Positions 350 to 59,605 of a stretch of DNA of 64,000 nucleotides are shown here, piece by piece. The DNA is from a virus: the IMG/VR virus record IMGVR_UViG_3300005466_000024, positions 1 through 64,000 of that record. The stretch is one strand, 5' to 3'. How positions within the stretch are numbered: position 1 is the stretch's first letter; each line of letters opens with the position of its first letter. The notes beneath the pieces were generated by a model that saw only the letters and a program-made list of their open reading frames with translations, ran no database searches and had not been told where the DNA came from. Position numbers and translations under genes: made by a program.

Positions 350-1840
350 TCATCCCCCCTTGGTCGTCTTGGTCGGCAGTACCGCGGTGTCCGCGGGACT
401 GTGCAGGGTCAGGGCGGCCTGCTTGGACAGTTCGGGACCGGCGGGCCACACCTGCAGCGCCCACCATGGGGCAGGCCGCACCGTCGAGGCCGTCAACCCC
501 AGGGCTGAGAGGCTGTCGTCGTCGAACGGCACTCCGTAGCGCGCCCCGCTGGGGGCGATGAGCCACATCGCGCCGCGAGCGGGTGAGTCCAGTGCCCCGC
601 CGGTGCTGGTGACGAACGTGGTCGCCTCTGCCCCGACGAGCACCTGGTCGGCCTGTACGCCGCCGCCCCCGCCCACCAGTTTCACCAGGCTGGCCTGCTG
701 GTCGGCGCCGATGGGCAGGCCCCGTCCCGATACCACGGTGAACCGGGCTTGCCGTTCGGTCTGGCTCCACTGCCAGGCCGCGCACGTCACGGGTCGACTG
801 GCCGGGTCGATGAGGTGTACCGGGTTGTGCGGGTAGTGGTCGATGTCGAGGTCGTGACGGGCGGGGATCTTGGCCAGCTGGTCGGGGGCGAGGTACGGCG
901 GCGCGGGCTGGCCGTAGGAGTCGTGTCCGCGCAGCATCGCTGCGGTCACCGGGGACACCTCCTGCACCCCGTCACCGAGGACGACGTAGAAGCGATCGGC
1001 TCCGGCGGCCACGTCGCGACCGGCGAGTACCGCACCGACGGGGACGTGCAGTCCGAATTCGGGCGGTGCGGGCTGACCCGCACCGGGTACGGTCGGCACG
1101 GTCAACGGATGTTCGGCGGGTAGCGCGTCGTACAGCGGTTGCGACATCGGCGGCACTGGGGCACCGGGGCGAATGCCCAGTGCGGTGGTGACCACGCCGT
1201 CGGTGAGGTCCACCGGCATCCGGACGCCGCCGATGACCAGGTAGGTCTGGGGTCCGTGGCCGGAGTCGTAGGCCAGCAGCAGGGCGTCGTCGGTGCCGAG
1301 TTCGCCTGCTGCGGCACTGAAGGTCAGCTGCCCGTCGATGCCGGTCACCTCGGGACCACCCCCGACGGTGGTGGGGGCGGTGTCGCACACCGCCCACCGG
1401 GATACCTGCGGCGACAACGTGGCGGGGGCCTCGATGGGTGCGCCGATGATGCCCACTGGCTCGCCCTTGGGCCATTTGGCGATCTCGCCGGGCGAGACGA
1501 AGGTGGGGGTGTCGGGGGAGCCTGCGATCAGCCGTGCGGACACCAGGTTCAGCGCTGGGTGCAGCCGGTGGTCGATGACGATGTAGAGGGCACCGGTGCT
1601 GCGGTCGGCGATGATCTTCGAGGAGTCCCCGATCACGCCGGCGGGCCGGAACCATCCGTAGACGAGCGCCCCGACCAGGGTCACGACGCCCAGCACCACC
1701 GACACCAGCAACATGGTGCGGTGCCAGTAGCTCGGGTTGGGGTCCATGCGCACGGATCGACGCAGGAACGCGAATGCGAGACGGCGACGCACGAACCAAT
1801 GCCCGGAAACCTGCGTCTTACTCGCCAAACGGAATGGCAC
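350..1840 (-). CDS. eccB: Type VII secretion membrane protein EccB (ESX-2/ESX-P-like)
   Basis: 496 aa; N-term SKTQVSGHWFVRRRL...RSVRM, single TM, then RPAG-IGDS-IIADRSTGALY-IDHRLHPALNLVSARL...GIIGAP...WAVCDT, closely following the EccB2 pattern; C-term APWWALQVWPAGPELSKQAAL. Confidence 0.93.
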   Translation of the reverse strand: MPFRLASKTQVSGHWFVRRRLAFAFLRRSVRMDPNPSYWHRTMLLVSVVLGVVTLVGALVYGWFRPAGVIGDSSKIIADRSTGALYIVIDHRLHPALNLVSARLIAGSPDTPTFVSPGEIAKWPKGEPVGIIGAPIEAPATLSPQVSRWAVCDTAPTTVGGGPEVTGIDGQLTFSAAAGELGTDDALLLAYDSGHGPQTYLVIGGVRMPVDLTDGVVTTALGIRPGAPVPPMSQPLYDALPAEHPLTVPTVPGAGQPAPPEFGLHVPVGAVLAGRDVAAGADRFYVVLGDGVQEVSPVTAAMLRGHDSYGQPAPPYLAPDQLAKIPARHDLDIDHYPHNPVHLIDPASRPVTCAAWQWSQTERQARFTVVSGRGLPIGADQQASLVKLVGGGGGVQADQVLVGAEATTFVTSTGGALDSPARGAMWLIAPSGARYGVPFDDDSLSALGLTASTVRPAPWWALQVWPAGPELSKQAALTLHSPADTAVLPTKTTKGG

Positions 1841-3715: not shown

Positions 3716-4869
3716 GGGAGGGAGAGTTCTTCCATCGCGCGCTGCAGGACGTTGGGCCCGAACGGTGACCCATCGAGGTCGGTGACTGCATCGTCGGTGA
3801 CCGGGGCGATTACCGACATCGCCCGTTCGGTACGCAGCACCGCCGAGATCTCCTCGAAGAGGGCGCGATACACGACGGGATCGCTCCTGACCACCTCGAC
3901 GAGCCGATCCTTGCCCTGAACCTTGTGCTCGCCCTTCTTGTCGGGGCCGGGCAGGGCGCGGTGGTGATACCAGCCGCCACTGAACTTGATGACCTCGACA
4001 ATGATGCCCAGCCGCACGATTTCCTCGAGCTGGTCGATCCCGAACCCGTACTGTTCGGTCGCCACGGTGTACATCCGCCAGAAGGCCTCCCGGCCTTCGA
4101 TGCCCCCGACCTGATTCTTGACGACCCGGCCCACGACTTCGGTGCCGACTTCGACGGTTTCACCGTCGACCTTGGCCTGGAACTTCGCGGGCCGCTCCCT
4201 GATGAGAATGCGCAACGAGCAATGGTGCCGCCAGGCGTTGCCGCCCACGGTCACATAGCGGTGGTATCCGTCCTGATCGACCCGCAGTTGGTTGATCCCC
4301 ATCGTGCAGCACTCGTACCGGTTGGAATGATTGCCGGCCACGCGGGCGAACTCGCTGATCAGCCTCGCCGCGTCACGACCACCACCGGACACCTCGGCAC
4401 TGCGTTCGGTGACCCGTTTGGGGATGCCACCCGCAATCGAGTCGTACAGAACGAAGCAAACGTGCCCGGAACTTACGAACTCCCGGTAGGTGTCCGTGGC
4501 TTTTTCGATATCGGCCGGATAGTGCGGGATGAATCGCTCCATGCGCTCGGGCCCGAGGAGCTGCTCGACGCGGTCCATGGGGGTCTTGCCCTCCGTGTCG
4601 ATGTACAGGCCGTAACGGTCGGGATAGGCGTCCAGGAAGTTGCGCATCGCAGTCAGGGCCAGGGTCGTCTTGCCCGCGGATTCCGAACCGAACAACTCGA
4701 CCACCCGGTCGGCGGGTAGGCCGCCGCCGCCGATGGCCAGGTCCAGCGCGAGGGATCCCGAGGAGACGCGCGGGCGCTTCGGAACCTCGGCGGCGGTCAT
4801 GATGGATCCGGGGCCCTGCGCTTTCTGCACGGCCGCGATCAGCTTCGCCACGTCCTTGTTGGCCATCAC
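3712..4869 (-). CDS. recA: RecA-like recombinase
   Basis: [36 protein letters not shown] (Walker A), YDSIA (Walker B), [24 protein letters not shown]. Start at GTG 4869 or ATG 4866, overlapping the dnaE stop. Confidence 0.93.
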   Translation of the reverse strand: [385 protein letters not shown]

Positions 4870-7800
4870 ACTTTCCTTTTCGATGCCAGGTTGTCCAGGC
4901 GGACCAGCTCCACTAGCCGTGCCCCTCGCCCGTCCTTGCGGCACTCACACGCCACGGGCGCACCGAGGCTGATCATGCCCTTGACCTGGGTCCACTCGCG
5001 GGGGAAGGCGGTGAACTCGAAGTCCGATTCGGCAAACCTTACCGTCACGAACGCCATTTCCTGGCCAGCCTGGAACCCACTCTTGATGGCGTGTCGCGTC
5101 ACCTTGGTCACCTGCCCGGCGATGGTCAACCGGGCCCCGGTGTCGGCGTCATCGATGTCGGCGGGGTCGTAGATCACCTCTCCCTCGAGCAAGGACAGGT
5201 AGGACTCCAGCGGGTCCACTGTGATGTGCCGACCACACAGCTCCTGTTCGATCCCGTAGATGACGGCGGGGTCGGTGAAATCGGGTATCTCGATGTGGCT
5301 CCCCGGCATCGCCAGGCGTCGCTCCACGATCGCCGCCAGTTTCTCGGGATTGGTGCGGGTGCTCTCGGCGAGATCCCGGGTGACCATGTGGTACTCGTAC
5401 TGGCGCAACAGTTCGGCCCGGTCACCGAGGGAATCCAGTGCCCCCACCTTGATGAGGTTGACGATCACGGTCTTGTTGGCACCCTTGCCCGCAGTCGCCA
5501 GGTAGTCCTGCAGGGACCGGTAGGGGCGCCCCGCGACGATGTCGCGGGCGCTCGCCGCGGCGATGCCGCGCAACGCATCGAGTCCGTAGCGGATGGAGTC
5601 GTCGGTGATGGTGAACTTCTGTCCAGACAGGTTCACGTCGGGCGGCAGTACGGCCAGACCCATTCGCCGCGCCTCGCGAATGTACTCGGGGGTGTTGGCG
5701 GGATCGCTGACGAGCAACCCCATCACGAATTCTGCGGCATAGTGGTGCTTGGGCCAGATCTCCCAGTACCCGGTCATCGCATAGCCGGTGGCGTGTGCGT
5801 GGCCGAACGCGTAGCGTCCACTGGCTTCGATCGATGTCCAGATCTTCTCGATGACCTTCAGCGCCGCATCGCGTTGGAAGTCGCCGCCATCGGGTGGGCC
5901 ACCGAAGAGTGCAGTGAACTCGGTGTTGGCCAGACAGCCCGCGGCGAACTCCTCCCACATCGCCTTGATCTTGTCCATGTACTTCTTGCCCAGCGCCTTG
6001 CGCAGGTCGTCGGCCTCGTCGGCGGAGAATCCGGCCAGGTCACGGGAGGCCCGCATCATTTGTTCCTGATAGACCAGCACACCGTGGGTGTCGGCGGTGA
6101 TCGGCTCCATCAGCGGATGGTCGTAGGTGGTGGATTCCACGCCGGCCCGACGCCGCAGGAACCTTTCGGTCAGTCCCGCGTCCTTGACGCCGGGCCGGAT
6201 GATGCTGATCAGCAGCGCCAGGTCCTCGATGCTGGTGGGCTTGAGTTCGATGGCGGTGCGGGTGGTCCCCGCAGTCAGCTGGAAGATGCCGGTGGTGCGC
6301 CCGCGATGGATCTGGGGCCACACCGCCGGGTCGTGTTCGGGTAATGCCTCCCAGTCGATGTCGACTCCGTGTCGTTCCCGGATCAGGCGTTTCGTTACCT
6401 CGAGAGTGTCGAGGTTGCGCAGGCCGAGCAGGTCGAACTTCACCCCACCCAGCTCTTCGACCTCGAGCATGTCGAACTGGGTGGTGACGACCTCTTTCGC
6501 GGTTCCGTGGTGACGGGTGCGCATTGGGATCCGTCCCAGCAACGGATCCTTGTTCATCAACACCCCGGAGGGGTGCTTGCCGGACTGGCGGGCGATACCC
6601 ACCAGGAGGCCCAGCAGGCGGAACAGTTCGGCGTGTTTGTGCGCCCATGGGGCCAGATCGCCGCCCTTCTCCTGCAGGATCTCGTCCCACCGGACCTCGT
6701 CGCCCTTGTCGCCGGCATGCTCGCCGCGCGCCTCCATGGCACTGGCGGCCAACTTGGTGGCCTTGTCGATGATCTTGCTCATCGCTTCGACGTCCGCTTG
6801 TGGCACCTTCTGGCGCCCCATCGCACGGGCCAGGTCGCGCAACATGGCCTTGGGGGCGTTGCGGGTGATGGTGCCGATGGTGCAGACGTGGTCGTGGCCC
6901 CAGCGCGCTCCCAGGTACTTCACCATGTCACCCAGCCTCGACTGGGGGAAGTCGATGTCGATGTCGGGTGGGCTCTTCCGGGCGGGGGTCAGGAACCGCT
7001 CGAACAGCAGGCCATAACGGATCGGGTCGATGGCGGTGATACCGAGCAGCCAGGTCACCAGGGAACCACCTGCCGACCCGCGGCCGGGGCCGACCCCGAT
7101 CGGCTCTTTGTGTGGCCCCTTGACGTACTGTGCCCAGCTGCCGGTTTTGGCGGCCCTCACCATGTCTTCATCGACACAGAAGTAGCCGCAGTTATGGACC
7201 CGAATTCCCTCGGCGACATACGTCGGATCACCATCAACCGACAAGTTGTAAACCAACCCGCTGTAGTGACGACTCGTCACACCTTTGACCCGCACCCACC
7301 ACCTGTCACCATCACGACGGGCACCATATGGAGCCTTCTTGCGCTCTTCCTGCCAACAAACCCGATACTTCTGCCGATCCAGCCAACGGTAGGAGATTTC
7401 CGTCGCCCATATCCCCGTGCGCAGAAGAATCTGTCGTAACTGAAACGCCAGTACCGGATTGCAGGTGTCGACGATCTTCCTGCCGTTCGCTTTCGTTGTG
7501 CCGTCCCCGTCGAACCACCCATCGACAAACGCCCGCAACGACTCCGATGACAACGACATCAGCCATGGGCTGAGTCGTTTCTCGTAGACCCCCGTCCCAA
7601 CCACCTCTGACAGGAATAACGCCAACGGATGGTTTGTGACTATGTGCAGCAAGCCCTTGTGGTTTGGGGCTCCCGCCCATGTCTTAGCGTATGTACGCAG
7701 CTCGCCCATCCCCAATTCCCGCAGACAGGAGGCTAGTCGATCACGAATCGCCATTTCGTCACGATGAAGGGTCCACCCCACCTGACCTGGACATGTCGAT

Positions 7801-9428
7801 GAATCGGGGTCATACAGATGACCCTCTGCCACCCACAGACCGACCACGTACATGAGTGCTGGGGACGGCATCAATTTGTCGGGTGCCCAACCCTTGGATC
7901 GACGCGCGCTTTTCCACCGACCGAGGACCACCTTGGTGAACCCCTCGCCTGATGGCGATACCCACCATCCCCGATCTAACGCCAATCCGAGCAAATCGAA
8001 CGGGCTGTCGACGCCCTCAGGCGCATCAACAGCCACCTCATCGCCGCGCCTAAACCTCCCCAGTTCCTGCCATCCACTAGGAGTCAGGACAGGATGTTCT
8101 TTGGTGCCAGACAGTTTGCGATACGAACCTGCGACAGCTATTTCCGCCAACTGCTCCTCTACGGGCCTGCTGGACACTCGCGCAACTCGCTGCTGTCCCG
8201 CCCTGGTCTCCACGTAGTCACCCGGCCGGATCGTCCCTATCGCCCGCAGTCCCTGCGCTGTGCTGACCTGCGTGCCCGGTGGAAAACAGAAACCCTTGTC
8301 GATGATGAGCTGGCATTCGCTCTCCGCGCGCTGTAGGTAGCGTTCCTGATCGAGGCCACCATCGATCACCTTGCGTTTGAATCCTTCGGTGACGAGGTCG
8401 AGGAATTTCTCGATGTCGTCGTGGTCGTTGCCGGTGAAGCTGGGCATTCCCAGGGTGGGCCGGATTTCGGCCACGCAGGTCTGCGCGATCTGCCACGACA
8501 TGTCTATCGCCCGTTCCACGTGCGGGGCGTCGATGCCGTGCCGGCCCATCCAGTAGTAGAGCTCCTGGTCGCCCATCAGGTGGTCGGCCTTCTGGCCCTC
8601 GGGCAGCTGGTCACCCTTGTTGCCGGTGTTGATCCGCCACACCATGTCCTTGAGTTCCCACTCCTCCGGACGGGTGTGGTGGGCGTCGTTGACGACGACC
8701 TGCGGGATCCCCAGCTCGGTCGCCAACCGCAGCTTGGCCCGATTGAACTCGGATGCCAGCGCATTGGCTTGTGCGGTGCACATTTTGGTGTCGAGGAACT
8801 TGATCTCGTCGTCGGTGCGGGGGTTCATGAACTGCCAGGTGTGCAACTCGGAGAAAAACCGGTCACCGAACACGGCCAACAGCCGCCCGTAGATCTGGCG
8901 GGCCTCCTCCTCATCGCCGCGCACCAGGATCGCTCGCGCCAATTCCGTGAGCAAGCACCCGTCCGAAGCCCACAGGCCGTCGCGATAGTGCCGTAGCAGC
9001 TCGAGGTCGGCCAGTGGCTTCTTGTGGAAGTACTTGCGCTGGTAGGCCACCGACGACAGCGCCCACAGGTTGGCCAGTCCTTGCTGGGATGCGGCGATCA
9101 ACGTGATGTGGGAATTGGGGACTTCCTTTTTCTGCGCAATGTCATCGACGTAATATCCTTCCATCCCGAATATCGGGTGGACACCCTCGGCAATACAGGC
9201 TTTCTGGAATGCATAGTGTTGATTGCACTCACCGTGGTCGGACAAACCAATGGCCGCTTGCCCCAATTCCCGGGCACGCTTGGCGATCGAGGTGACGGGG
9301 GAGTACCCGTCCAGAAAGCTGCCCTCACTATGCACGTGATAGTTGACGAAATGGCTGGCCAGGGAAGCTTCTTCGCGCCTGCGCAGTTCCAGCGCAGCAT
9401 TGAAGTCGATGATTCTGGCATCGCCCAT
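4866..9428 (-). CDS. dnaE: DNA polymerase III alpha subunit (DnaE) containing an intein
   Basis: PHP motifs HVHSEGSFLDG, SDHG, NDAHH; GPGRGSAGGS, FERFL, PDIDIDF catalytic motif, KFDLLGL, C-terminal OB fold (MAFVTV). Confidence 0.95.
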   Translation of the reverse strand: MGDARIIDFNAALELRRREEASLASHFVNYHVHSEGSFLDGYSPVTSIAKRARELGQAAIGLSDHGECNQHYAFQKACIAEGVHPIFGMEGYYVDDIAQKKEVPNSHITLIAASQQGLANLWALSSVAYQRKYFHKKPLADLELLRHYRDGLWASDGCLLTELARAILVRGDEEEARQIYGRLLAVFGDRFFSELHTWQFMNPRTDDEIKFLDTKMCTAQANALASEFNRAKLRLATELGIPQVVVNDAHHTRPEEWELKDMVWRINTGNKGDQLPEGQKADHLMGDQELYYWMGRHGIDAPHVERAIDMSWQIAQTCVAEIRPTLGMPSFTGNDHDDIEKFLDLVTEGFKRKVIDGGLDQERYLQRAESECQLIIDKGFCFPPGTQVSTAQGLRAIGTIRPGDYVETRAGQQRVARVSSRPVEEQLAEIAVAGSYRKLSGTKEHPVLTPSGWQELGRFRRGDEVAVDAPEGVDSPFDLLGLALDRGWWVSPSGEGFTKVVLGRWKSARRSKGWAPDKLMPSPALMYVVGLWVAEGHLYDPDSSTCPGQVGWTLHRDEMAIRDRLASCLRELGMGELRTYAKTWAGAPNHKGLLHIVTNHPLALFLSEVVGTGVYEKRLSPWLMSLSSESLRAFVDGWFDGDGTTKANGRKIVDTCNPVLAFQLRQILLRTGIWATEISYRWLDRQKYRVCWQEERKKAPYGARRDGDRWWVRVKGVTSRHYSGLVYNLSVDGDPTYVAEGIRVHNCGYFCVDEDMVRAAKTGSWAQYVKGPHKEPIGVGPGRGSAGGSLVTWLLGITAIDPIRYGLLFERFLTPARKSPPDIDIDFPQSRLGDMVKYLGARWGHDHVCTIGTITRNAPKAMLRDLARAMGRQKVPQADVEAMSKIIDKATKLAASAMEARGEHAGDKGDEVRWDEILQEKGGDLAPWAHKHAELFRLLGLLVGIARQSGKHPSGVLMNKDPLLGRIPMRTRHHGTAKEVVTTQFDMLEVEELGGVKFDLLGLRNLDTLEVTKRLIRERHGVDIDWEALPEHDPAVWPQIHRGRTTGIFQLTAGTTRTAIELKPTSIEDLALLISIIRPGVKDAGLTERFLRRRAGVESTTYDHPLMEPITADTHGVLVYQEQMMRASRDLAGFSADEADDLRKALGKKYMDKIKAMWEEFAAGCLANTEFTALFGGPPDGGDFQRDAALKVIEKIWTSIEASGRYAFGHAHATGYAMTGYWEIWPKHHYAAEFVMGLLVSDPANTPEYIREARRMGLAVLPPDVNLSGQKFTITDDSIRYGLDALRGIAAASARDIVAGRPYRSLQDYLATAGKGANKTVIVNLIKVGALDSLGDRAELLRQYEYHMVTRDLAESTRTNPEKLAAIVERRLAMPGSHIEIPDFTDPAVIYGIEQELCGRHITVDPLESYLSLLEGEVIYDPADIDDADTGARLTIAGQVTKVTRHAIKSGFQAGQEMAFVTVRFAESDFEFTAFPREWTQVKGMISLGAPVACECRKDGRGARLVELVRLDNLASKRKV
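7191..8288 (-). mobile_element. Intein with LAGLIDADG homing endonuclease (366 aa) in DnaE
   Basis: Starts CFPPGTQV, ends VYNLSVDGDPTYVAEGIRVHN followed by extein Cys; LAGLIDADG blocks YVVGLWVAEGH and FVDGWFDGDG; one hand-counted 60-mer is 55% GC, below flanks. Confidence 0.93.
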
Positions 9429-27649: not shown

Positions 27650-28996
27650 TCACCTTACGAATATGTGCGGATCCCTCAGGTTGAACGTGTTGGGGCGTTG
27701 CCGACGCCGGGTGAGCGAGGTGCTGACGGTGGAGTCCCGGGCCGGCGCGGTGGTGGCTACCGCGTAGTCGGGGTAGAAGGTGAACATCACCTGGCTGGGG
27801 GCGCTCACCGGCAATTTGTAGTGGAAGGCATCGGCGATGCCGCCGATGCCGAGGATCCGTTCGATCTCGTGGGTGATCCACTCGAGCTGGGAATCCCACG
27901 CGAAGTGGTAGGGGGTGCCGTCGGGGTTCAGGGCCGGCGCCTGGGCCGGATGAATGCCGTACTTGCCGCCGGGGAAATTGCCGGGGCAGTCGCACAGCTC
28001 GTAGGTTTTCCATTCGGTGTACTGCTCGAAGGTCTGGTACACCGAATAGTTCTGTTCGGTCTTCACCGTGCCGTCTGGTTGCAGGGTGCCGTAGGTCACG
28101 GCATCGATCTGCGAGCGCGGATCCCCATACAGGTAGTACTGGCTGTACTCCTGGGTAGCGTTGAACGCCGCCGTGGGCGCCACCTGTGGTGTGGTCTGCG
28201 CGCGGAACAGCCATTGCTCACTGGGCAGTAGGTCGATCGGCAATAGCTGCGGCGGCGGCATCTGGGAGAGCACCGGGGTGGCGGTGACCAGTCGTTCCAC
28301 CTGGAAGTAGGTGGAGTCCGCTGTCGCGGTGGCTACCGGGACCGGTGTCTGTACCGCCAGCCCCTGCGTGTCCACGGTGATGATGGCGTCGATCGGGCTC
28401 ATCCGGTCGAGCATGTCGCGCAGCAGCCGCATCTCGATGGGCTCGAGGGTTTCCTTGTGTGGTTTGACGACGATTTCGTTACGCGCGCTGACCGGCGCGC
28501 GCCCCAGGTTCGCGCCGAGGCCCCAGTTGTCGGTGTAGCGCCATATCTCGAACAGGTCGCAGTCCACCGCGATGGCGGCGTTGACGCAGGTGCGGATCCC
28601 GGTGGGGGTGCCGCCCTGCGAGCAGGCGATGAAGTACTGCTTGACCCGGTCGCGGTACCAGGCGTCCTTGACGCGGACTTCGTCCCACTGATCGCTGGTG
28701 AGCAGGTCGACGGTCGGGTTGTAGGGGTAGGACTCGGCGGGACTGCGTGACAGGAAGCCGATCTGCCCGAAGATGTAGTCGAGGTCGTGGAAGTACAGTG
28801 TCTCCATCGCCCCGGCCATCCGCGCCAACAGGATCTCGTTGATCAGCGCGCCGGCCCCGGTGGTGCCGCACAAGGCGTCCACGATCTTGTAGAGGATGGT
28901 GCCCGCCGTGCCGGTGTACACCGAGGGGTCGCAGTGCGCGAGGCGCTGCGTCGTCGACATCGGCGGGATGAGCGGGAAGGGGCTTTGATCAGCCAC
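27650..28996 (-). CDS. Baseplate wedge protein (P2 gpI-like position)
   Basis: Follows baseplate J; DLDYIFG...GGTPTGIRTCV...NEIVVKP pattern typical of wedge subunits. Confidence 0.6.
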   Translation of the reverse strand: MADQSPFPLIPPMSTTQRLAHCDPSVYTGTAGTILYKIVDALCGTTGAGALINEILLARMAGAMETLYFHDLDYIFGQIGFLSRSPAESYPYNPTVDLLTSDQWDEVRVKDAWYRDRVKQYFIACSQGGTPTGIRTCVNAAIAVDCDLFEIWRYTDNWGLGANLGRAPVSARNEIVVKPHKETLEPIEMRLLRDMLDRMSPIDAIITVDTQGLAVQTPVPVATATADSTYFQVERLVTATPVLSQMPPPQLLPIDLLPSEQWLFRAQTTPQVAPTAAFNATQEYSQYYLYGDPRSQIDAVTYGTLQPDGTVKTEQNYSVYQTFEQYTEWKTYELCDCPGNFPGGKYGIHPAQAPALNPDGTPYHFAWDSQLEWITHEIERILGIGGIADAFHYKLPVSAPSQVMFTFYPDYAVATTAPARDSTVSTSLTRRRQRPNTFNLRDPHIFVR

Positions 28997-29378
28997 GACT
29001 TATCCCCCCTGCCGCCGCGGGACGGTAAATGTACTCATCACCCTCCCAGTCATCGGGATCGGCGACGACATGGCTGTGGGGCACACTCCGTTGCAGCACC
29101 CTGCCCGTTCCGGCGTAGTCCTTCGCGAGCTGTTTGTTCGTGGTGACGAAATCGCCCGGAACGATCCCCTTCTGACCCCACGGTGCGCCCCGATAAATGA
29201 CGACCGGCTCGTCGGCCTGGACGCCACGCAGTTTGTCCAGCGTGAGTAGGTGCGGACTGATCGGGCCCGTCCGCGAGGATGGGTCGTAGTCGACGAATAG
29301 GCCACCCGTCGGATTGACGCTTTCCAATGTTGGATGCCACGCGGCCACTCGTTCGCGGGCCGTCAGGATCCTGCGCAT
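28989..29378 (-). CDS. ADP-ribosyltransferase-fold protein with MRRILTARERVAAWH leader (129 aa)
   Basis: Start ATG 29378 (TGATG overlap with baseplate J); VVIYRG...PGDFVTTNKQLAKDY...EGDEYIY resembles R-S/T-E ART strands. Confidence 0.55.
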   Translation of the reverse strand: MRRILTARERVAAWHPTLESVNPTGGLFVDYDPSSRTGPISPHLLTLDKLRGVQADEPVVIYRGAPWGQKGIVPGDFVTTNKQLAKDYAGTGRVLQRSVPHSHVVADPDDWEGDEYIYRPAAAGGISRG

Positions 29379-31135
29379 CAGGGTGCTGCCTTGCGGGTGA
29401 TGATGACGTCCTGGAACACGGCCAGCGCATTGTCGGAGACCTTGAAGTCGTCGGTTTCGATGGTTTGCGGGGACGGGTCTGTGGGGTTGGCGAACACTTC
29501 GATGCCGTAGTCGGTGGAGTCGTCGGCCGAGGTGGTCAGCCGCACGTCGAGCACGCCGAGCACCTGCTGCACCGCCAGACAGATCCCGGCGACCTTGAGC
29601 TGGGGTCCGAACCCCAGGCCTTGGAAGTAGGTTTGCAGCTGGGTGCGGATCGCCGAGTTGGTGATCGCCACCGAGTAGGAGCGGTCGTATTCGACGCACA
29701 GGCAGACCACCAGGTACGACCAGGCCGCCTGGTGGACCATCACGTCGGTGCAGACCTGTTTGGAGGTGTCGACGATCGCCTGCAGCAGTTCCGGCACCTG
29801 GTTGTAGGTGTAGGTCAGGGTCAGTTCGGTGCCGTTGGCCGGGCCGGCGCCCGTCCATTCGATGCCGGAGGTTTCCGCTGGGCCACCGGCGAGCAGGGTG
29901 GTGTCGGCGAGCAGGAAATAGTGTGTGCCCTGGGCGTAGACGGTGACGCCGCTGGTGATGGTGGCCGGGAAGCTGACTATCGGCACCGAACCCAGCCGCA
30001 TGAACCGGTTGGTGGCCGAGGGGGTGCCCGCCGACCCGACCCGGCGAAACTTGCCGGTGTAGTAGGGCGACGCCGAGGAGGCCGACAGCGCCGTGGAGGT
30101 CACCACGGTTTGTTCGGTGACGGTGACCGGGGTGACACCGTCGGTGAACACGTCGACCTTGTTGGTGATGCCGTTGGGCGGGTCGTTGCGGGAGCTGCGG
30201 GTGGTGTAGGAAAATTCGAGGTCGACGACCTGGCCGACCATGTTGGCCAGCGCACCGGTGGAGATGGTGGTGAACACCGGGGACACCCCGGCGGACAGGT
30301 TGTAGTCGTCGATGTCGGAGTAGAACACCTCGCTTTCCTGTCCCAGGTCGGTGAAGCAGCTGCTCATCCCGCCCCACGCGTATTTCACGTCCTGGGTGAC
30401 CGGCAGCGTCAGGGTGGTGGCGGGTACTTCGATCTGGGTGGTGTACAGCGTGGTGGGCCCGAACACGGTGACCCGGCTGACGGTGTTGTTCTGCAGCGCA
30501 ATCGCCCGGTACCAGTCACTGGTCCCGGCGATGTTGCGCAGCAGGGTGGCCTTGAAGCGCATCCGCAGTTCGGCGTCGGTTTCCACGTCGACCCCTCCGC
30601 TCATGGCGGCGAGGTTGGTGACGGTGGCCGTCGCCAGGGTGGAGCCCAGCGAGGTGATGGAGCCCGGCGGCACATTGCCGACGGTGCCCACTGTGGTGCA
30701 CTGCACGGGGATGTCGATCGAATAGGATCCGGCGGTCAGCACCACCGCCTGGGTGGAGGCGAAGTACAGGGCGGCGCTGGCGCCGGGGACGGCGGTGTTG
30801 GTGTAGAACTGGGTGCCCAGGGACACGTTCTGGTCGCTCGCCGAGGTGGTGGACAGCGTCATTCGCACGACACCTTTGGCGGCCTTTCCCGCCAATCTTC
30901 CGTACCCGAATATCCCGACGAATTGTTCCAGCTCCAATCCGGACTTGTTCTCGATATCCAGTAGCGATCCCACCAGGTATTGGTCGACGTAGGCCGCACT
31001 GATTGCCTCTGCACAGGCATCGATGATTTTTCGTTCGGGGGTGCCCAATTCGCAGGACAGCCCTGGACAGGTGGTGGCCAGGGTGGCGATGATCTGGGAG
31101 GAGATTTCTGCCGGGGTCTTGCTCGACCTACTCAC
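29378..31135 (-). CDS. Baseplate J-like protein
   Basis: GTPERKIIDA, GLELEQF...GRLAGKAAKG, VGNVPPGSIT, VTN...GGVDVETDAELRMR. Confidence 0.88.
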   Translation of the reverse strand: MSRSSKTPAEISSQIIATLATTCPGLSCELGTPERKIIDACAEAISAAYVDQYLVGSLLDIENKSGLELEQFVGIFGYGRLAGKAAKGVVRMTLSTTSASDQNVSLGTQFYTNTAVPGASAALYFASTQAVVLTAGSYSIDIPVQCTTVGTVGNVPPGSITSLGSTLATATVTNLAAMSGGVDVETDAELRMRFKATLLRNIAGTSDWYRAIALQNNTVSRVTVFGPTTLYTTQIEVPATTLTLPVTQDVKYAWGGMSSCFTDLGQESEVFYSDIDDYNLSAGVSPVFTTISTGALANMVGQVVDLEFSYTTRSSRNDPPNGITNKVDVFTDGVTPVTVTEQTVVTSTALSASSASPYYTGKFRRVGSAGTPSATNRFMRLGSVPIVSFPATITSGVTVYAQGTHYFLLADTTLLAGGPAETSGIEWTGAGPANGTELTLTYTYNQVPELLQAIVDTSKQVCTDVMVHQAAWSYLVVCLCVEYDRSYSVAITNSAIRTQLQTYFQGLGFGPQLKVAGICLAVQQVLGVLDVRLTTSADDSTDYGIEVFANPTDPSPQTIETDDFKVSDNALAVFQDVIITRKAAP

Positions 31136-40738: not shown

Positions 40739-41265
40739 AGTTTCTGGGCCAGTTCGTAGAATTCGGCGTCGAGCTTGAGGATTTCGCCGTAGATCTGGGT
40801 GATGACCACCGGGTAGTAGCGCCGCAGCGCGGCGACCTTCTCGGCGTAGAGCTCGTCGTCGGTGAGTTGGCGCAGCGGGGTGACCAGGTCGGTGCCGTCG
40901 ATGCTGCGCACCCCGGCCGCGCACACCGCCAGTTGGTAGGCACGCTGCTCGGCGGGCGGGGCACCGAGAAATTCCTTGCAGAACAACCCGACCCGCAGGT
41001 CGTCGTCGGTGGTGAGGTTGGTGATGGCCACGGTGTGGCCCATCACCGAGATCGTTTTGTTGCGCCGCCCCACGGTGAGCAGGGTGTTGAACAGCGTCCG
41101 TTCCTCGTCGGTGAGTTCGGTGATGCCGTCGTCCCGGGTTTCCTCGTCCTGCGTTTCGCTGTCCGCAATGCGCCGGCGGGTTTCGGTGACCGGCGCCGGG
41201 GCGATCAGCGGGGGGTCTTCCCCTAGGTCGGGGTCGGCTACGATGATGCGCTGTTGCGGCATCAT
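40720..41265 (-). CDS. Tail assembly chaperone (G part, 181 aa)
   Basis: ATG 41265 (ATGA overlap); ends LGKADG* with G GGA AAA slippery heptamer four codons before the stop. Confidence 0.8.
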   Translation of the reverse strand: MMPQQRIIVADPDLGEDPPLIAPAPVTETRRRIADSETQDEETRDDGITELTDEERTLFNTLLTVGRRNKTISVMGHTVAITNLTTDDDLRVGLFCKEFLGAPPAEQRAYQLAVCAAGVRSIDGTDLVTPLRQLTDDELYAEKVAALRRYYPVVITQIYGEILKLDAEFYELAQKLGKADG

Positions 41266-41945
41266 GGGCGCTGCTCGCGGTGTGCGCTCCGGTGGTGCCC
41301 GGGTCGGCCGCAGTGGCCGCACACCTCGTGGGAGGCCACCGTCTGGCGTTCCTCGGGGGGCAGCATGTTCGGGTTGCTGACCTGCTGGCTGGGCGGTGTT
41401 TTCTCCCGGGGTGGCGCCAGTTTCCTGGGGACTTTGTCCTTGGCCTCCTGCGCCACGTCGACGATCTGGTCGCCGGGCAGTTGGCCGGGCCACCCCGCCC
41501 AGGGATCCACGATGGCCTCGAGCCGGCGCGCCTCGTGGAATTCGTCGTCACCGCGGCCCGGGAGGTAGATCGGGGTGCCGAACGGGTGCGGGGCGTCGCC
41601 GTGGAAGTCGGGGTGCGGGCCGGGTTCCTCGCCGGGGTCGTGTTCGGGGGGTGGTCCCCAGTTGTAGCCGGATTCCTCGTCCTCGAGTGCCCGCTCGTGC
41701 TGCTCGTCGTCTTCCGGGGCGTATTCGTACTCGCGCAGCCATTCGTTCCAGTCGCCGTGGCCCCTGCTGGGTTCGCGGTGGTAGGCGGTGTCGTTCGGGT
41801 CGGCCGCCGCCCAGTTCAGCAGTCCGGCGTGGATCCGTTTACCGCCCAGCAGGGCATCGAACTCGGGGCTCGGGGCCCCGGTCATGCTGCGGGGATTCTG
41901 GTCGGGGGCACCCCACCATTGTTCGGCTTGCCGCTGCACGCGCAT
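41262..41945 (-). CDS. Acidic His/Pro-rich hypothetical protein with C-terminal zinc-knuckle-like motif
   Basis: RBS GGAAGGAG; CGHCGRPGHHRSAH at the C-terminus. Confidence 0.65.
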   Translation of the reverse strand: MRVQRQAEQWWGAPDQNPRSMTGAPSPEFDALLGGKRIHAGLLNWAAADPNDTAYHREPSRGHGDWNEWLREYEYAPEDDEQHERALEDEESGYNWGPPPEHDPGEEPGPHPDFHGDAPHPFGTPIYLPGRGDDEFHEARRLEAIVDPWAGWPGQLPGDQIVDVAQEAKDKVPRKLAPPREKTPPSQQVSNPNMLPPEERQTVASHEVCGHCGRPGHHRSAHREQRP

Positions 41946-41969: not shown

Positions 41970-43538
41970 TCAGATTCGCCGTGCATATCGGGGGGACAGT
42001 GGGACGGGCTGTGCGCGTTCCTCGACGACCGCACGCATGAATCCGGCCTCTCCGGATGCCACTGAATACCGTTGGGCCAGCCGGGAGTTGGTACGCCCGG
42101 CACCCTGCCCGATCCAGCGCCGGGTCTTCCAGTTGCGTCCGGGCCGCAGATGCCACAGATGACAGATGTCGTTGGAGGTCACCTCGTGCAAAGCGTATAG
42201 CGTGTCCAATGATTTGAGGAACGAGATGTCCTCCCCGCCCCATCCCGAAAAGCGGGGGTCCATTCCGCCGGTCAGCCAGAATGCTTCGGCGGGCATCATC
42301 TGTGCCAGTGCCCCATACAGGTAGCCGTAATTCACGGTGGCCGTTCCGCCGGGTTCCAGCCACTCCTGCCGGGGTGGGGAGGGGACGGCGTACGGCTGGG
42401 CCGGGTCGGTGGTCAGTAAGTCGATGGTGTACTCCTCGGAGAGGCGGTAGAGCCGCCGGTAGGGGACGTACCAGAGTTTGCGCCCGGCGGCCAGGGCCTC
42501 CTCGATGCTGTCCGCGCATTGCTGGATGACATGGGCATCGAGGTAGGCGTCGGCGTCGAGGATGAGCAGGATCCTCCCCCGGGCGCGTTCAGCGGCCCAG
42601 TTCACTGATCGGCACTTGCTGTAGGGCCAGGAGCCGTCGTGGCCGACGATGATCTCCGCATGGGGTAGTTGCTGCTGCCAGTGCTGCGACAGCCATGCCC
42701 ATACTCGTTCGCGGTGCTCGGTGTCCTCCTTGTCGTGCCGGTAGGGTACGAGCACCGACAGTTGCGGGCGCCGGCCCTTCTTGCGGGGCGGCAGGATCGT
42801 TGGGGGTTCGATGGTGGCGCGTGGTGGTGTCGTGCCGGTCGCGGTGGCCAGCGCGGCGCGCAGTTGTTCGCGGACCTCCTCGACGCGCGCGTAGGGGGCA
42901 CGCCAGAACTCCCCGAAGCTGGGGTCGGTGTCGTAGATCGAGGCGTAGTCGCGGTACTTGAAGTCGCCGCCCTCCTTGTCCGCACTGGGGAACAGTTCGG
43001 CGCGGCGTGGGATGCCGAAGGAGTCCGCGACGACGAGGCCGTGCAGGCTGGAGGACACGACTCGTTTACAGCTGGCGATCTCGGTGATCACCTCCCCCGG
43101 GGGTCGGCGCACGTCGATGATGTGGCCGTAGGGGAAGCGTTGCGCGAGTTTCTGGTCGCTCCAGTGTGGGATCACGCCGAGGTCGTATTTGGCCACGGTC
43201 TGCGGCACCCACTTGGAAGCGAGTAGGCCGGGATCCCCGAGTACCACCGAGGTGGGGACACCGCGCACGCGGGCGGCCGACAGCCGCCCGCGCAGTGCGA
43301 TCACGTTGGCCGCCGACAGGTCGACCTCGGAGTTCTCCCGCAGTTTGCCGGCTCCGCACACGGTGCCCGTCCAGCCCGGCGGGAGGTGTTCGAGGACCGA
43401 GCCGACGAGTACCAGGTCGGCCTGCGCGGGCGGCGCCCAGGTGCACTCGACGCCGAGGCGGGCCAGGATCCAGTTGTTCAGCTCGTCACCGAAGTTGTGC
43501 AGCGGAGGCCGCCGCCACCCGTAAACAGCACGGGGCAT
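41970..43538 (-). CDS. Polysaccharide pyruvyltransferase fused to GT2-type glycosyltransferase
   Basis: N: NFGDELN, GSVL, ALRGRLS, GDPGLL, GVIPHW, SSSLHGLVVADSFGIP. C: SVLVPYR, WAAERA, ILDADAY (DxD), GGMDPRFSGWGGED, HLWH. Confidence 0.85.
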   Translation of the reverse strand: MPRAVYGWRRPPLHNFGDELNNWILARLGVECTWAPPAQADLVLVGSVLEHLPPGWTGTVCGAGKLRENSEVDLSAANVIALRGRLSAARVRGVPTSVVLGDPGLLASKWVPQTVAKYDLGVIPHWSDQKLAQRFPYGHIIDVRRPPGEVITEIASCKRVVSSSLHGLVVADSFGIPRRAELFPSADKEGGDFKYRDYASIYDTDPSFGEFWRAPYARVEEVREQLRAALATATGTTPPRATIEPPTILPPRKKGRRPQLSVLVPYRHDKEDTEHRERVWAWLSQHWQQQLPHAEIIVGHDGSWPYSKCRSVNWAAERARGRILLILDADAYLDAHVIQQCADSIEEALAAGRKLWYVPYRRLYRLSEEYTIDLLTTDPAQPYAVPSPPRQEWLEPGGTATVNYGYLYGALAQMMPAEAFWLTGGMDPRFSGWGGEDISFLKSLDTLYALHEVTSNDICHLWHLRPGRNWKTRRWIGQGAGRTNSRLAQRYSVASGEAGFMRAVVEERAQPVPLSPRYARRI

Positions 43539-56793: not shown

Positions 56794-57633
56794 CTAGACC
56801 AGTTCGGCCCTTCCTGCCACCGGCTGCCCGAATGTGACCACCACCGTGTCGGGGGCCGGGTAGGACACCGGTGCCTCCACCCCTTCTCCGTTCACGATCA
56901 GGGCCACCGACGGGTAGTGGTCGAGGGGGTGCACGATGATCCACGGGTCGGCGGGGGTGGGCTGCTCGAAGGTGTAGCTGTCCGGCTCGGTGGCCCCCGC
57001 CGGTACCAGTACCACCCGCTGATCGGGCGGCACGACGACGACTGGGCCGGTGATGTTCACGGGTGTGCTGAAGTCCACCCCGAGCACCGGGTACGAGCAG
57101 ATCGGCAGGGTGGGGGCCAGTTTGCTGATGATGGCGCGCTGACCGATGACGTCCCAGCGTTCCTGCCCGAACCGGGTGCCGGTGCGCAGGCTGTCGCGGG
57201 TGACGGCCTGCACCCCGTAGAACCCCTCGAGTTCGGTGGCCCGCCCATTGGCGTCCCACTGCCGTACCCGGATGATGAAGTCGTGTTCGACGAGCAGCGG
57301 GTACCACTCGAACTGCGCTTCGCGGGAATCGGCCGCCCATATGCCCTGTTTGAGGAACTGCTCGGAGACGATGTGGTCGGCGAACAGGCCGTGGACCCGG
57401 CGCACATCCTTGATCGGCGGGTACATGGTGGTGCCGTAGCAGACCGAACATTCCCCGTCGGTGCTGGAGTACACGTCATCGTTACAGGCCGGGCAGCGCG
57501 GCGTGTCCTTGTCGATCTCGGGACGGGCCATGGACAGCAGTACGCACTGCTCGCCGGCCATCACCAGGGAGTCACGCACGTCCTGGCGGGTCGTCCGAAT
57601 ACAATAATCCTCAACCGATTTGATGGCGGTCAT
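56794..57633 (-). CDS. Head closure/neck protein with CxxC...CxxC insert (279 aa)
   Basis: Start ATG 57633 (TGATG overlap); CPAC...CSVCYGT; C-term WIIVHPLDHYPSV domain. Confidence 0.6.
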   Translation of the reverse strand: MTAIKSVEDYCIRTTRQDVRDSLVMAGEQCVLLSMARPEIDKDTPRCPACNDDVYSSTDGECSVCYGTTMYPPIKDVRRVHGLFADHIVSEQFLKQGIWAADSREAQFEWYPLLVEHDFIIRVRQWDANGRATELEGFYGVQAVTRDSLRTGTRFGQERWDVIGQRAIISKLAPTLPICSYPVLGVDFSTPVNITGPVVVVPPDQRVVLVPAGATEPDSYTFEQPTPADPWIIVHPLDHYPSVALIVNGEGVEAPVSYPAPDTVVVTFGQPVAGRAELV

Positions 57634-58628
57634 CAGCCCTCCCCCGCCGAGCGGATCTTCTCCACGATGCGGGCTTTGTCGGTCACCCAACCCTCCCGGG
57701 CGTCGCCGTTCCAGGGCCACGGCCCGCGGTGGGGCTCGACCCGGTACAGGAAAGCCTGTCCGTGATCCCTCACGAGGTACTTCATCCAGTCGTCCGAATG
57801 CGTGAGGTCATGCTCGACCCACGTCCAGTGAGCCCGGTTGTCCAATCCGCCGTGGTACGGCGCATCGAGCCATGGCGCCTTGCCCTTGCGGGCGTCCAGT
57901 ACGGTACCGACCGGCAGGTCGTGGAAAGTAGCGTGATACCAGTCCACACCGACCGGGGTCGGGTCCGGGGGGTGGTCGCGGTAGCGTTGCTGCCAGCCAC
58001 GCTCGTCGTAGGCGTCCTGCGGGCCCAGGAAGTGGCCCTCGGACCCCTCGGGGTCGGTGCGATCGTCGAGGAGGAAGCCGGGTTCGCGCCACACGTCGGG
58101 GTCGCGGGGTGCGGCTACTCGGTGCGCGTGCCACGCGGCGACCCTCTCCCCGGCGATCGGAATTTCCAGCCAATCGTCGGGATGCTGCCGACGTATCCGA
58201 ATCGACTGGGGATTGACCCCATCCTTGCCCCTGAATCGGTAGTACTGACCCATCCATGGCTCGGCAGCGCTCGTATCACCGTCACCGGAAACAATCACCT
58301 GGTAGTGGGCCTTGGGATCCACGTTATTAGGGCCGACACCATAGGTGAGCTTATGGGTCGAGAACCTCTCGGCAGATTTGGGATCGGGAGTCCACCACTC
58401 CCCTAATCCCTTAGTTCCCAAATGGTTGAGTAGGTTCGGAGCCAAGGACAGATCCGACTTCCCGCCAAGAGCCGACTCCAATTGAGCAACGAGGTTGGGG
58501 GGCATATCTTCTCGCCGCAAAGCAATACCGCGATGCAAACGAGTAGGTGGACCACCATCCGGAACGAGTTGAGACATCCCCTGATGCCACACCGCCACCC
58601 TCTCGCGGGCCGTGAGGATGCGTCTCAT
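57633..58628 (-). CDS. Two-domain ART-fold protein with MRRILTARERVAVWH leader and internal GERVAAWH repeat (331 aa)
   Basis: Domain 1: LHRG...GEWWTPDPKSAERF. Domain 2: WYHAT-LPVGTVL...FLYRVEP...VTDKARIV, resembling the Arr rifampin ART. Start ATG 58628 overlaps upstream stop. Confidence 0.55.
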   Translation of the reverse strand: MRRILTARERVAVWHQGMSQLVPDGGPPTRLHRGIALRREDMPPNLVAQLESALGGKSDLSLAPNLLNHLGTKGLGEWWTPDPKSAERFSTHKLTYGVGPNNVDPKAHYQVIVSGDGDTSAAEPWMGQYYRFRGKDGVNPQSIRIRRQHPDDWLEIPIAGERVAAWHAHRVAAPRDPDVWREPGFLLDDRTDPEGSEGHFLGPQDAYDERGWQQRYRDHPPDPTPVGVDWYHATFHDLPVGTVLDARKGKAPWLDAPYHGGLDNRAHWTWVEHDLTHSDDWMKYLVRDHGQAFLYRVEPHRGPWPWNGDAREGWVTDKARIVEKIRSAGEG

Positions 58629-59605
58629 CGGGGCCACTGCGATCCCCAGCTGATGGCCGGTGCCGCCGGGTAGAACCGCCACGCGCGGACAGCCGATGCG
58701 TAAGTTCCGCTGACGAACAGACCACGGGCGCCGCCGCCGTAGATGCCGCCGGCCACCAGCAGTGAGCCGCGTCCCATGCCGAGCAGTTTGCGCTTGGCCA
58801 TCTTGACCATCTTGACCCACTCCGGATATTCCTGGGCCAGGATTTGCGCCCACCGCTGCGAGTAGGCGGTGCGGTCGGTGTAGGTGACGTTCATGTTGGG
58901 GCGGGCCGGGATTTCGACGTAGGAGTCGCGCAGATGCCGGATCACCTCCAGGTAGGTGCCGACCACCTCGAGGCCCGCGAAGCTCGACGGTGGCGGGTTG
59001 GTGAGGTTCCAGTCCATGACGGGGAAGCCGGTGACGCTCATCCGGGTGGTGGCGATGCCCATCAGTTGGCTGATGCGTTCGCTGTCGAAGTGGGTTTGGA
59101 ACTCGTCCATCAGGTGGGGGCCACCCTCGGCGCTGTCGTAGAGATCGCCGAACATCCAGTTGACCTGCTCGACGACGAGCTTGTGCGCGTCGTCGAGGGT
59201 GTCGTAGATCGGCATCTGGTTGAGCACCTGCAGGTGGTCCAGGAAGGTCAGCAGCGTGCCGTTGACCTGGTAGGTCCATTGGGCGGTGAGCACGCCGCGC
59301 TGTCCGGTGAACTGGGGGCCGATCGGCATGTCGTACATGCCGGTGTCGACCCGGTTGATGCCGTCGGTGGTGTCGAGTACCAGGGTGCCCAGTGGGTCGT
59401 TGGTGGGTTGTACCTCCAGGGTGGGGTCCAGGTAGTACAGCTGGACGCGCAGGGTGCCGGGGTCGGCGTCCACCGCGGTGCCGTCGGGTTTGCGGATGTT
59501 CAGGGCGATGTATCCGTACCCGTTTTGGGATACGAATTTCCGCACCACGGATTGATCTTTGATCTTGGGAGAAAACACACCGATCCCAGACGGCTCAATT
59601 GCCAT
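58625..59605 (-). CDS. Neck/head-tail adaptor protein (326 aa)
   Basis: Ig-like N-terminus plus helical adaptor-like C-terminus (YSQRWAQIL...KRKLL); position upstream of head closure. Confidence 0.6.
   Translation of the reverse strand: MAIEPSGIGVFSPKIKDQSVVRKFVSQNGYGYIALNIRKPDGTAVDADPGTLRVQLYYLDPTLEVQPTNDPLGTLVLDTTDGINRVDTGMYDMPIGPQFTGQRGVLTAQWTYQVNGTLLTFLDHLQVLNQMPIYDTLDDAHKLVVEQVNWMFGDLYDSAEGGPHLMDEFQTHFDSERISQLMGIATTRMSVTGFPVMDWNLTNPPPSSFAGLEVVGTYLEVIRHLRDSYVEIPARPNMNVTYTDRTAYSQRWAQILAQEYPEWVKMVKMAKRKLLGMGRGSLLVAGGIYGGGARGLFVSGTYASAVRAWRFYPAAPAISWGSQWPR

Follow-up and report, generated by a model that had tools for sequence, protein, structure and literature searches.

Two genes in the late structural region of a large phage genome, named A and B here, begin with nearly the same short peptide, which raises the question of what such a leader does for the proteins that carry it. 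The DNA analysed (the window) comprises bases 1–64,000 of a source record of 180,705 bp (180.7 kb; CheckV 100%, 65.6% GC). The phage is a Bxz1-like (cluster C mycobacteriophage-like) myovirus, a large actinobacteriophage with a structural module colinear with that of Mycobacterium phage Breeniome (Bixzunavirus, cluster C1). Identities to Breeniome were 75% for the major capsid protein, 58% for the baseplate J/wedge protein, and 52% for the DUF7297 protein.

Gene A (28989..29378, minus strand; 129 aa plus stop) starts with MRRILTARERVAAWH as residues 1–15 (29334..29378, minus strand; leader profile E 4.7e-13). Gene B (57633–58628, minus strand; 331 aa) has the N-terminus MRRILTARERVAVWH, with the 15 leader residues encoded at 58584..58628 (minus strand; leader profile E 4.1e-14). 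A first-pass annotation of the window had described a shared leader on otherwise unrelated genes, a third partial copy (IAGERVAAWH) between the two domains of gene B, and conservation at the protein level with differing codons, and all three observations held. By BLASTP, the two proteins aligned over residues 1–26 only (E 2e-8), the remainder being unrelated; apart from this, only the internal copy was matched, the gene A leader aligning to IAGERVAAWH at residues 156–167 of gene B (E 0.02). This internal partial leader, IPIAGERVAAWHAHRVAA (residues 155–172; 58113..58166, minus strand), was recovered by the leader profile at E 1.4e-7 and lies in a predicted disordered linker between domain 1 and domain 2 (pLDDT <50, residues 160–197). 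Synonymous differences were found in six of the 15 leader codons of A and B, corresponding to ~78% nucleotide versus 93% amino acid identity, so that selection acts on the peptide. Public gene calls place the start of gene B at Met42; the conservation of the leader argues for the longer form, which includes it.

Both leader genes and the internal copy were thus confirmed, and further copies had been missed. A six-frame scan of the genome revealed two adjacent leader genes beyond the window: gene C (genome 94498–95679), the homolog of Breeniome gp104 with a DUF7178 domain (Pfam E 2e-32), and the Gly/Pro-rich gene D (genome 94121–94501). The pattern MRRILTa.ERVAvW[HY] stands at the start of four genes in the genome, two of these in the window, and the leader profile found exactly five strong copies in the 180.7 kb (E 4e-14 to 1e-7). 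Also missed at first was a diverged leader, M.RR[IV]ETQAEQWPQR, on two or three further genes, among them a gp105 homolog (genome 114668–115660) and a small gene with a ribosome-binding site (genome 88691–89011). The modular tag proposed earlier is therefore carried by four to seven genes of this genome, and related phages have it on proteins numbering in the hundreds. A gene for a 227-aa acidic, His/Pro-rich protein (41262–41945, minus strand) with a good ribosome-binding site and the start MRVQRQAEQWW was left out of this count, its resemblance to the diverged leader being faint; its positional counterpart in Breeniome is the weakly similar homolog gp128, and it is located between the tail tube and chaperone genes.

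Searches with genes A and B by tblastn and megablast gave zero matches in 50,697 phage records. Relatives surfaced only via the baseplate protein and the leader profile, the DUF7297 protein being the query by which related phages were found. A related form of 20 residues, M-x-RRI[VIL]TAREQxEMLSPWRxA, is present on one to five genes per genome in seven of eight near-complete related phages, including Mycobacterium phages Breeniome and Tonenili and Gordonia phage Skog; compared to this form, three residues of the second half are missing in the present phage. With an iterated leader profile, 20 copies were detected in 8 of 15 related phage records, every one directly after the start codon. In Breeniome, Tonenili, and G001, the leader genes follow the major capsid gene on its downstream side at 0.3–4 kb. 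Those of Breeniome, gp104 and gp105, belong to the head module (2–4 kb downstream) and are annotated as hypothetical; the first one of Tonenili and of G001 comes 0.3–0.6 kb after the capsid gene. A single one of the two leader-gene loci of Breeniome had matches in 209 phage records.

A 40-column leader profile was also compared with 5.8 billion proteins. It matched 287 protein clusters at E ≤ 10, the best 120 of them at E ≤ 1.2e-6, and the matches include Mycobacterium phages Tonenili, LinStu, and Tyke, Gordonia phage Skog, and a Mycolicibacter genome. The best match was N-terminal in 107 of the 117 best hits. The other 10 proteins also begin with the leader and contain one to three further full copies, each after a Pro/Ser/Thr linker; polyproteins with internal full copies measure 900–1375 aa, and some hold two to four full copies. 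With hundreds of related-phage proteins carrying the leader, a recent local duplication is not its source. The consensus of 133 distinct leaders was M-[ATS]-R-R-I-[VIL]-T-A-R-E-Q-[VH]-E-M-L-S-P-W-R-x-A, in which R, R, I, T, A, R, E, Q, E, M, L, P, and W each occur in >75% of the sequences. Synonymous divergence combined with amino acid conservation, and the spread of the 133 leaders across phage genera, shows at the level of sequence comparison that the peptide is under purifying selection. The sequence pattern and the synonymous variation led us to reject three other roles for the leader: RHH-type DNA binding, a Tat signal, and an element acting at the RNA level. No description of the leader was found in Pfam or in the literature searched (motif, cluster C virion proteomics); cluster C mycobacteriophages are well sampled, yet their leader-bearing genes are annotated as hypothetical.

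We see roughly even chances that the leader is a capsid-loading tag, probably cut after the Glu residue in the manner of the T4 capsid-targeting sequence (CTS). It would then be a portable N-terminal virion-loading tag of Bxz1-like actinophages, by which late-expressed effectors (ART-like, GNAT, ParB-like, DUF7178, and others) would become part of the prohead and be delivered along with the DNA. Cleavage by the head maturation protease would probably occur after the near-invariant Glu of R-R-I-[VIL]-T-A-R-E, ahead of Q or R. Internal leaders in polyproteins, including the partial copy of gene B, would serve as processing sites separating the units, and the conserved downstream half (QxEMLSPWR; RVAxWH here) may do the docking. 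The reading is favoured because the peptide is strictly N-terminal on unrelated cargo and conserved across genera, and because an A-x-E match coincides with an encoded protease and a late-operon context. Cargo of polyvalent-type classes, internal copies in linkers, and the T-even precedent argue in the same direction. By analogy, we infer packaging, cleavage, and injection of the leader proteins.

Regarding this precedent, the T-even internal proteins comprise diverse cargo in which only the targeting sequence is conserved (PMC3012670). The T4 CTS (IPI–III, Alt) and the leader have in common that a short N-terminal peptide is the sole shared part of diverse proteins (PMC3012670), as found here on otherwise unrelated proteins of one phage. 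Alt is an ART cargo as well, and a Glu at the proposed cut and an encoded prohead protease are shared with the present phage. The leader differs from the T4 CTS in being twice as long, in its conservation to either side of the putative cut, in its internal occurrence in polyproteins, and in coming from phages of an actinobacterial host. To our knowledge, the two do not resemble each other past the terminal Glu when compared by eye. By analogy, the leader would work like the T4 CTS rather than be a member of it.

A candidate for the processing enzyme is encoded just upstream of the genes for the cement and major capsid proteins. The N-terminus of this 952-aa protein (genome 65687–68545, L058:1687–4545, minus strand) matched a head maturation protease (phrog_18299, E 1e-20), with His and Ser invariant. 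Its protease domain contains a Cys-x2-Cys...Cys-x-His insert, and its long tail is highly acidic, Asp/Ser-rich, and scaffold-like. The protein had no Pfam hit and no PDB sequence homolog, the profile search against the PDB yielding zinc-finger noise only. None of these searches tied it to a Glu-specific protease family or established kinship with gp245, gp175, or T4 gp21, which weakens the cleavage reading. The prohead proteases of SPN3US and phiKZ cut at A-x-E, and N-terminal propeptides of 20 and 24 residues occur on two SPN3US substrates (PMC10052503). The first-pass annotation had pointed out this A-x-E pattern in the leader, and the larger set bears it out: A-R-E before the putative cut is near-invariant, with Ala two residues before the Glu (P3) in 127 and the Glu itself (P1) in 124 of the 133 leaders. 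The motif and the short SPN3US propeptides resemble the leader, whereas most giant-phage propeptides have 111–254 residues and no one sequence is common to the substrates.

The major capsid protein (genome 64108–65112, L058:108–1112, minus strand) is encoded just past the window and carries at residues 36–44 the motif RKL[ST][AT]xEK, conserved in 10 related genomes. As the shorter PDB homolog 6wkk gp27 begins exactly at the RKL[ST]AxEK site, the motif may be an N-terminal propeptide boundary. As a second site of the protease, it is a weak candidate, since a P8–P1' scoring matrix derived from the leaders did not rank it highly.

The alternative closest to a capsid-loading tag that is cut is a docking peptide that is not, similar to an encapsulin cargo-loading peptide or the P22 scaffold helix. 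Here, too, the proteins would be packaged, the tag would stay on, and its partner would be a conserved part of the assembly (scaffold, inner capsid surface, portal, or tail lumen). The leader is predicted to be helical, albeit with low confidence (pLDDT 55–68), and all 20 residues are conserved, 10 of them past the putative cut; this conservation (QxEMLSPWR) goes beyond the needs of a simple site and counts against the cut-site reading. Furthermore, no second protease substrate was found independently with the leader-derived P8–P1' matrix. Docking alone leaves the near-constant extreme N-terminal position and the invariant A-x-E unexplained, as well as the retention of A-G-E plus the downstream half in the flexible linker of gene B, and we consider it unlikely.

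The genomic setting is shared by the leader genes, which are located within late structural operons in the same orientation, the starts of A and B overlapping structural-gene stops. The ATG of gene A has one base in common with the stop codon of the upstream gene for a Baseplate_J-like protein (29378..31135, minus strand; homolog of Breeniome gp139), and downstream follows the gene of the DUF7297 virion structural protein (27650..28996, minus strand; homolog of gp144). The start of gene B and the stop of its upstream neighbour overlap as ATGA. This neighbour (phrog_2791; 58625..59605, minus strand) is part of the late structural operon and a homolog of Breeniome gp121, and the downstream neighbour (phrog_2806; 56794..57720, minus strand) is a homolog of gp122. 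In Breeniome, gp121 and gp122 are adjacent; in the present phage, gene B separates their homologs. The slot of gene A, from the baseplate J/wedge gene to the DUF7297 gene, is occupied in Breeniome by HNH endonuclease genes. Together with an HNH_3/HTH_7 homing-endonuclease-like gene inside the structural region of the present phage (50186–51358, minus strand), this points to hot spots for mobile insertions. Gene A is positioned in the baseplate region and gene B in the neck region, neither of them in the head module, which speaks against the capsid-loading reading.

An ART fold had been proposed earlier for all three domains downstream of the leader copies. This stood for domain 2 of gene B (Z 8.0, prob 1.0); for gene A and domain 1 of gene B, the matches were weak though coherent, and neither gene A nor gene B matched any Pfam family at E ≤ 1. 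Domain 2 (about residues 198–331; 57636..58037, minus strand) strongly resembles the Arr-like ADP-ribosyltransferase fold in its structural model. Foldseek matched Arr 2hw2 (E 4.9e-3, prob 1.00), and VIA matched Arr 9iaf (Z 8.0, rmsd 3.9, 97 residues aligned). At the profile level, Arr was reached in the PDB at E 0.35 and no family at E ≤ 1 among the Pfam Arr-ms and ART-PolyVal models, with atlas leads of 0.88–0.89. The conserved pattern of the domain is WYH...Y...Y-x-V-x-P...PWNG, in which the His of WYH and the Tyr are nearly invariant. It is like Arr (PF12120) of the H-Y-[D/E] ART clade in its fold and in the strands with WYH-x-[ST] and Y-x-V-x-P; of the catalytic residues of that clade, the acidic third one is not clearly conserved, no acidic residue being invariant in strand 5. 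Domain 2 often occurs as two to four repeats in leader-bearing polyproteins.

The cargo domain of gene A (about 105 aa; 29016..29333, minus strand) belongs to a widespread family with a minimal ART-like predicted fold. Its residues ~16–121 have 39 homologs, none of which (0/39) carries the leader of the present phage. R63 (YRG), T79 (TTN), and E115 are invariant in 20 homologs, so that catalytic residues of the R-S-E type are conserved in the family with Thr at the Ser position. The model (pLDDT 79) gave ART-fold proteins in 40 of 46 VIA rows, the best being a weak match to KptA (Z 4.4), with weak matches also to TreX, Scabin, and diphtheria toxin; the top Foldseek hits were ExoS and ART2.2 (E 0.2–0.4; ExoS E 0.19). 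These matches are coherent and weakly indicate an ART-like fold. The sole PHROGs match of gene A, a weak one to a ParB C-terminal domain, was rejected as an assignment; it can be traced to the fusion of the gene A domain to ParB-like proteins. Several gene A relatives (P0019, P0023, P0032, and P0036) have other recurrent N-terminal extensions, of the MADPxIKDLAYRG and HPRxxDGKFG types, which may be alternative loading tags of other phage groups.

Of 157 leader proteins, 23 contain domain 2, with 31 copies between them; nine have the gene A domain, and nine have domain 1. The Pfam census of 40 and 103 leader proteins yielded DUF7178 (20), GNAT, glutaredoxin, ParB_N, Zeta toxin, and DUF7251. Combinations occur as well: the gene A domain is fused to domain 2 in P0044, and P0046 unites the leader, GNAT, domain 2, and a ParB-like domain in one protein. 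The same cargo repertoire is described by Iyer et al. (2017) for polyvalent proteins, which are predicted to be packaged and injected, and for the cluster C phage Alice these authors inferred capsid deployment of its solo GNATs (PMC5512222). The common features are ARTs in single or many copies, GNAT and ParB-like domains, and a late-gene location, and the leader-bearing relatives are likewise multidomain proteins (600–1375 aa). Unlike the polyvalent proteins portrayed there, the domains of the present phage are mostly encoded by separate small genes with one tag each. The leader-bearing proteins showed no MuF anchor, and targeted term searches of PMC5512222 turned up no shared leader.

Many of these cargos are potentially toxic (ART, Zeta toxin, ParB-like), the motif is highly conserved across Mycobacterium and Gordonia phages, and internal copies are tolerated. 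This would also fit an address or partner-binding motif whose site of action is the infected cell rather than the particle, either by tethering the enzymes to a host hub (RNA polymerase, ribosome, or replisome) or by binding a phage chaperone or inhibitor that silences toxic enzymes. The N-terminal restriction is unusual for short host-binding motifs, however, and coupling to the late virion operon is the wrong time for an early host takeover unless the proteins are packaged. We judge such a cellular address to be distinctly improbable.

If the leader is a loading or processing signal, it would define the set of injected proteins and thus candidate anti-defence and host-takeover enzymes; the catalogue would comprise ART, GNAT, ParB-like, Zeta toxin, and DUF7178 proteins. 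The principle of the T4 internal proteins would extend to actinophages, and the proposal could be put to a direct test with cultured phages grown on M. smegmatis. The cargo list can be read straight from genomes and metagenomes via the leader. More tentatively, and at somewhat less than an even chance, one universal, transferable 20-residue tag may load and process a large, fast-changing enzyme arsenal, with cargo gained by cassette exchange. Such a tag would be a ready-made handle by which foreign proteins could be loaded into mycobacteriophage particles and delivered into mycobacteria.

Domain 1 of gene B covers about residues 28–158 (58155..58547, minus strand). Its coding region (58200–58574) has a GC content of 54–57% compared to 65.6% for the genome and is flanked by two leader copies; the GC content suggests a recently acquired cargo cassette. 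Relatives of the domain occur as stand-alone proteins consisting of leader and domain 1 and also within GNAT polyproteins. An ART-like fold is weakly indicated by a single structural match, to the ART-like domain of IcmQ (Z 5.6, low-confidence model), besides atlas leads. The low GC content between two leader copies is consistent with a recent swap and could be taken to mean that the leader is a functionless footprint of cassette exchange, left behind where paralogous 5' ends recombined. This is very improbable given the purifying selection that the peptide shows (synonymous divergence, 133 leaders, different phage genera), and cassette exchange itself is compatible with a functional tag.

Lastly, a secretion signal of the type VII or twin-arginine kind, which a full-length EccB gene on the phage (T7SS_ESX1_EccB, E 3e-134; 350–1840, minus strand) and the leader's M-R-R-I-L start with its RR motif might suggest, is hardly credible, as EccB is missing from all eight other leader-bearing phage genomes searched, the RR is followed by the charged T-A-R-E-R/Q instead of a hydrophobic stretch, and direct reading reveals no WXG or YxxxD/E pattern in the leader. 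The first-pass annotation had kept secretion targeting as an alternative with a T7SS next door; EccB is real, at a distance of 27 kb, near the start of the record, and the alternative is weakened by its absence from the eight genomes. ESX secretion genes are unusual on a phage, and an open frame on the minus strand (1–348) lies beside EccB.

Two further genes of the window deserve mention. A 522-aa polysaccharide pyruvyl transferase and family 2 glycosyltransferase protein is encoded within the tail gene module (41970–43538, minus strand), and no homolog was detected in the matching stretch of Breeniome. The gene at 4866–9428 (minus strand) encodes a DNA polymerase III alpha subunit with PHP, NTPase, finger, and HHH domains, split by an intein that carries a LAGLIDADG endonuclease (Hint_2, Intein_splicing, and LAGLIDADG_3 domains).
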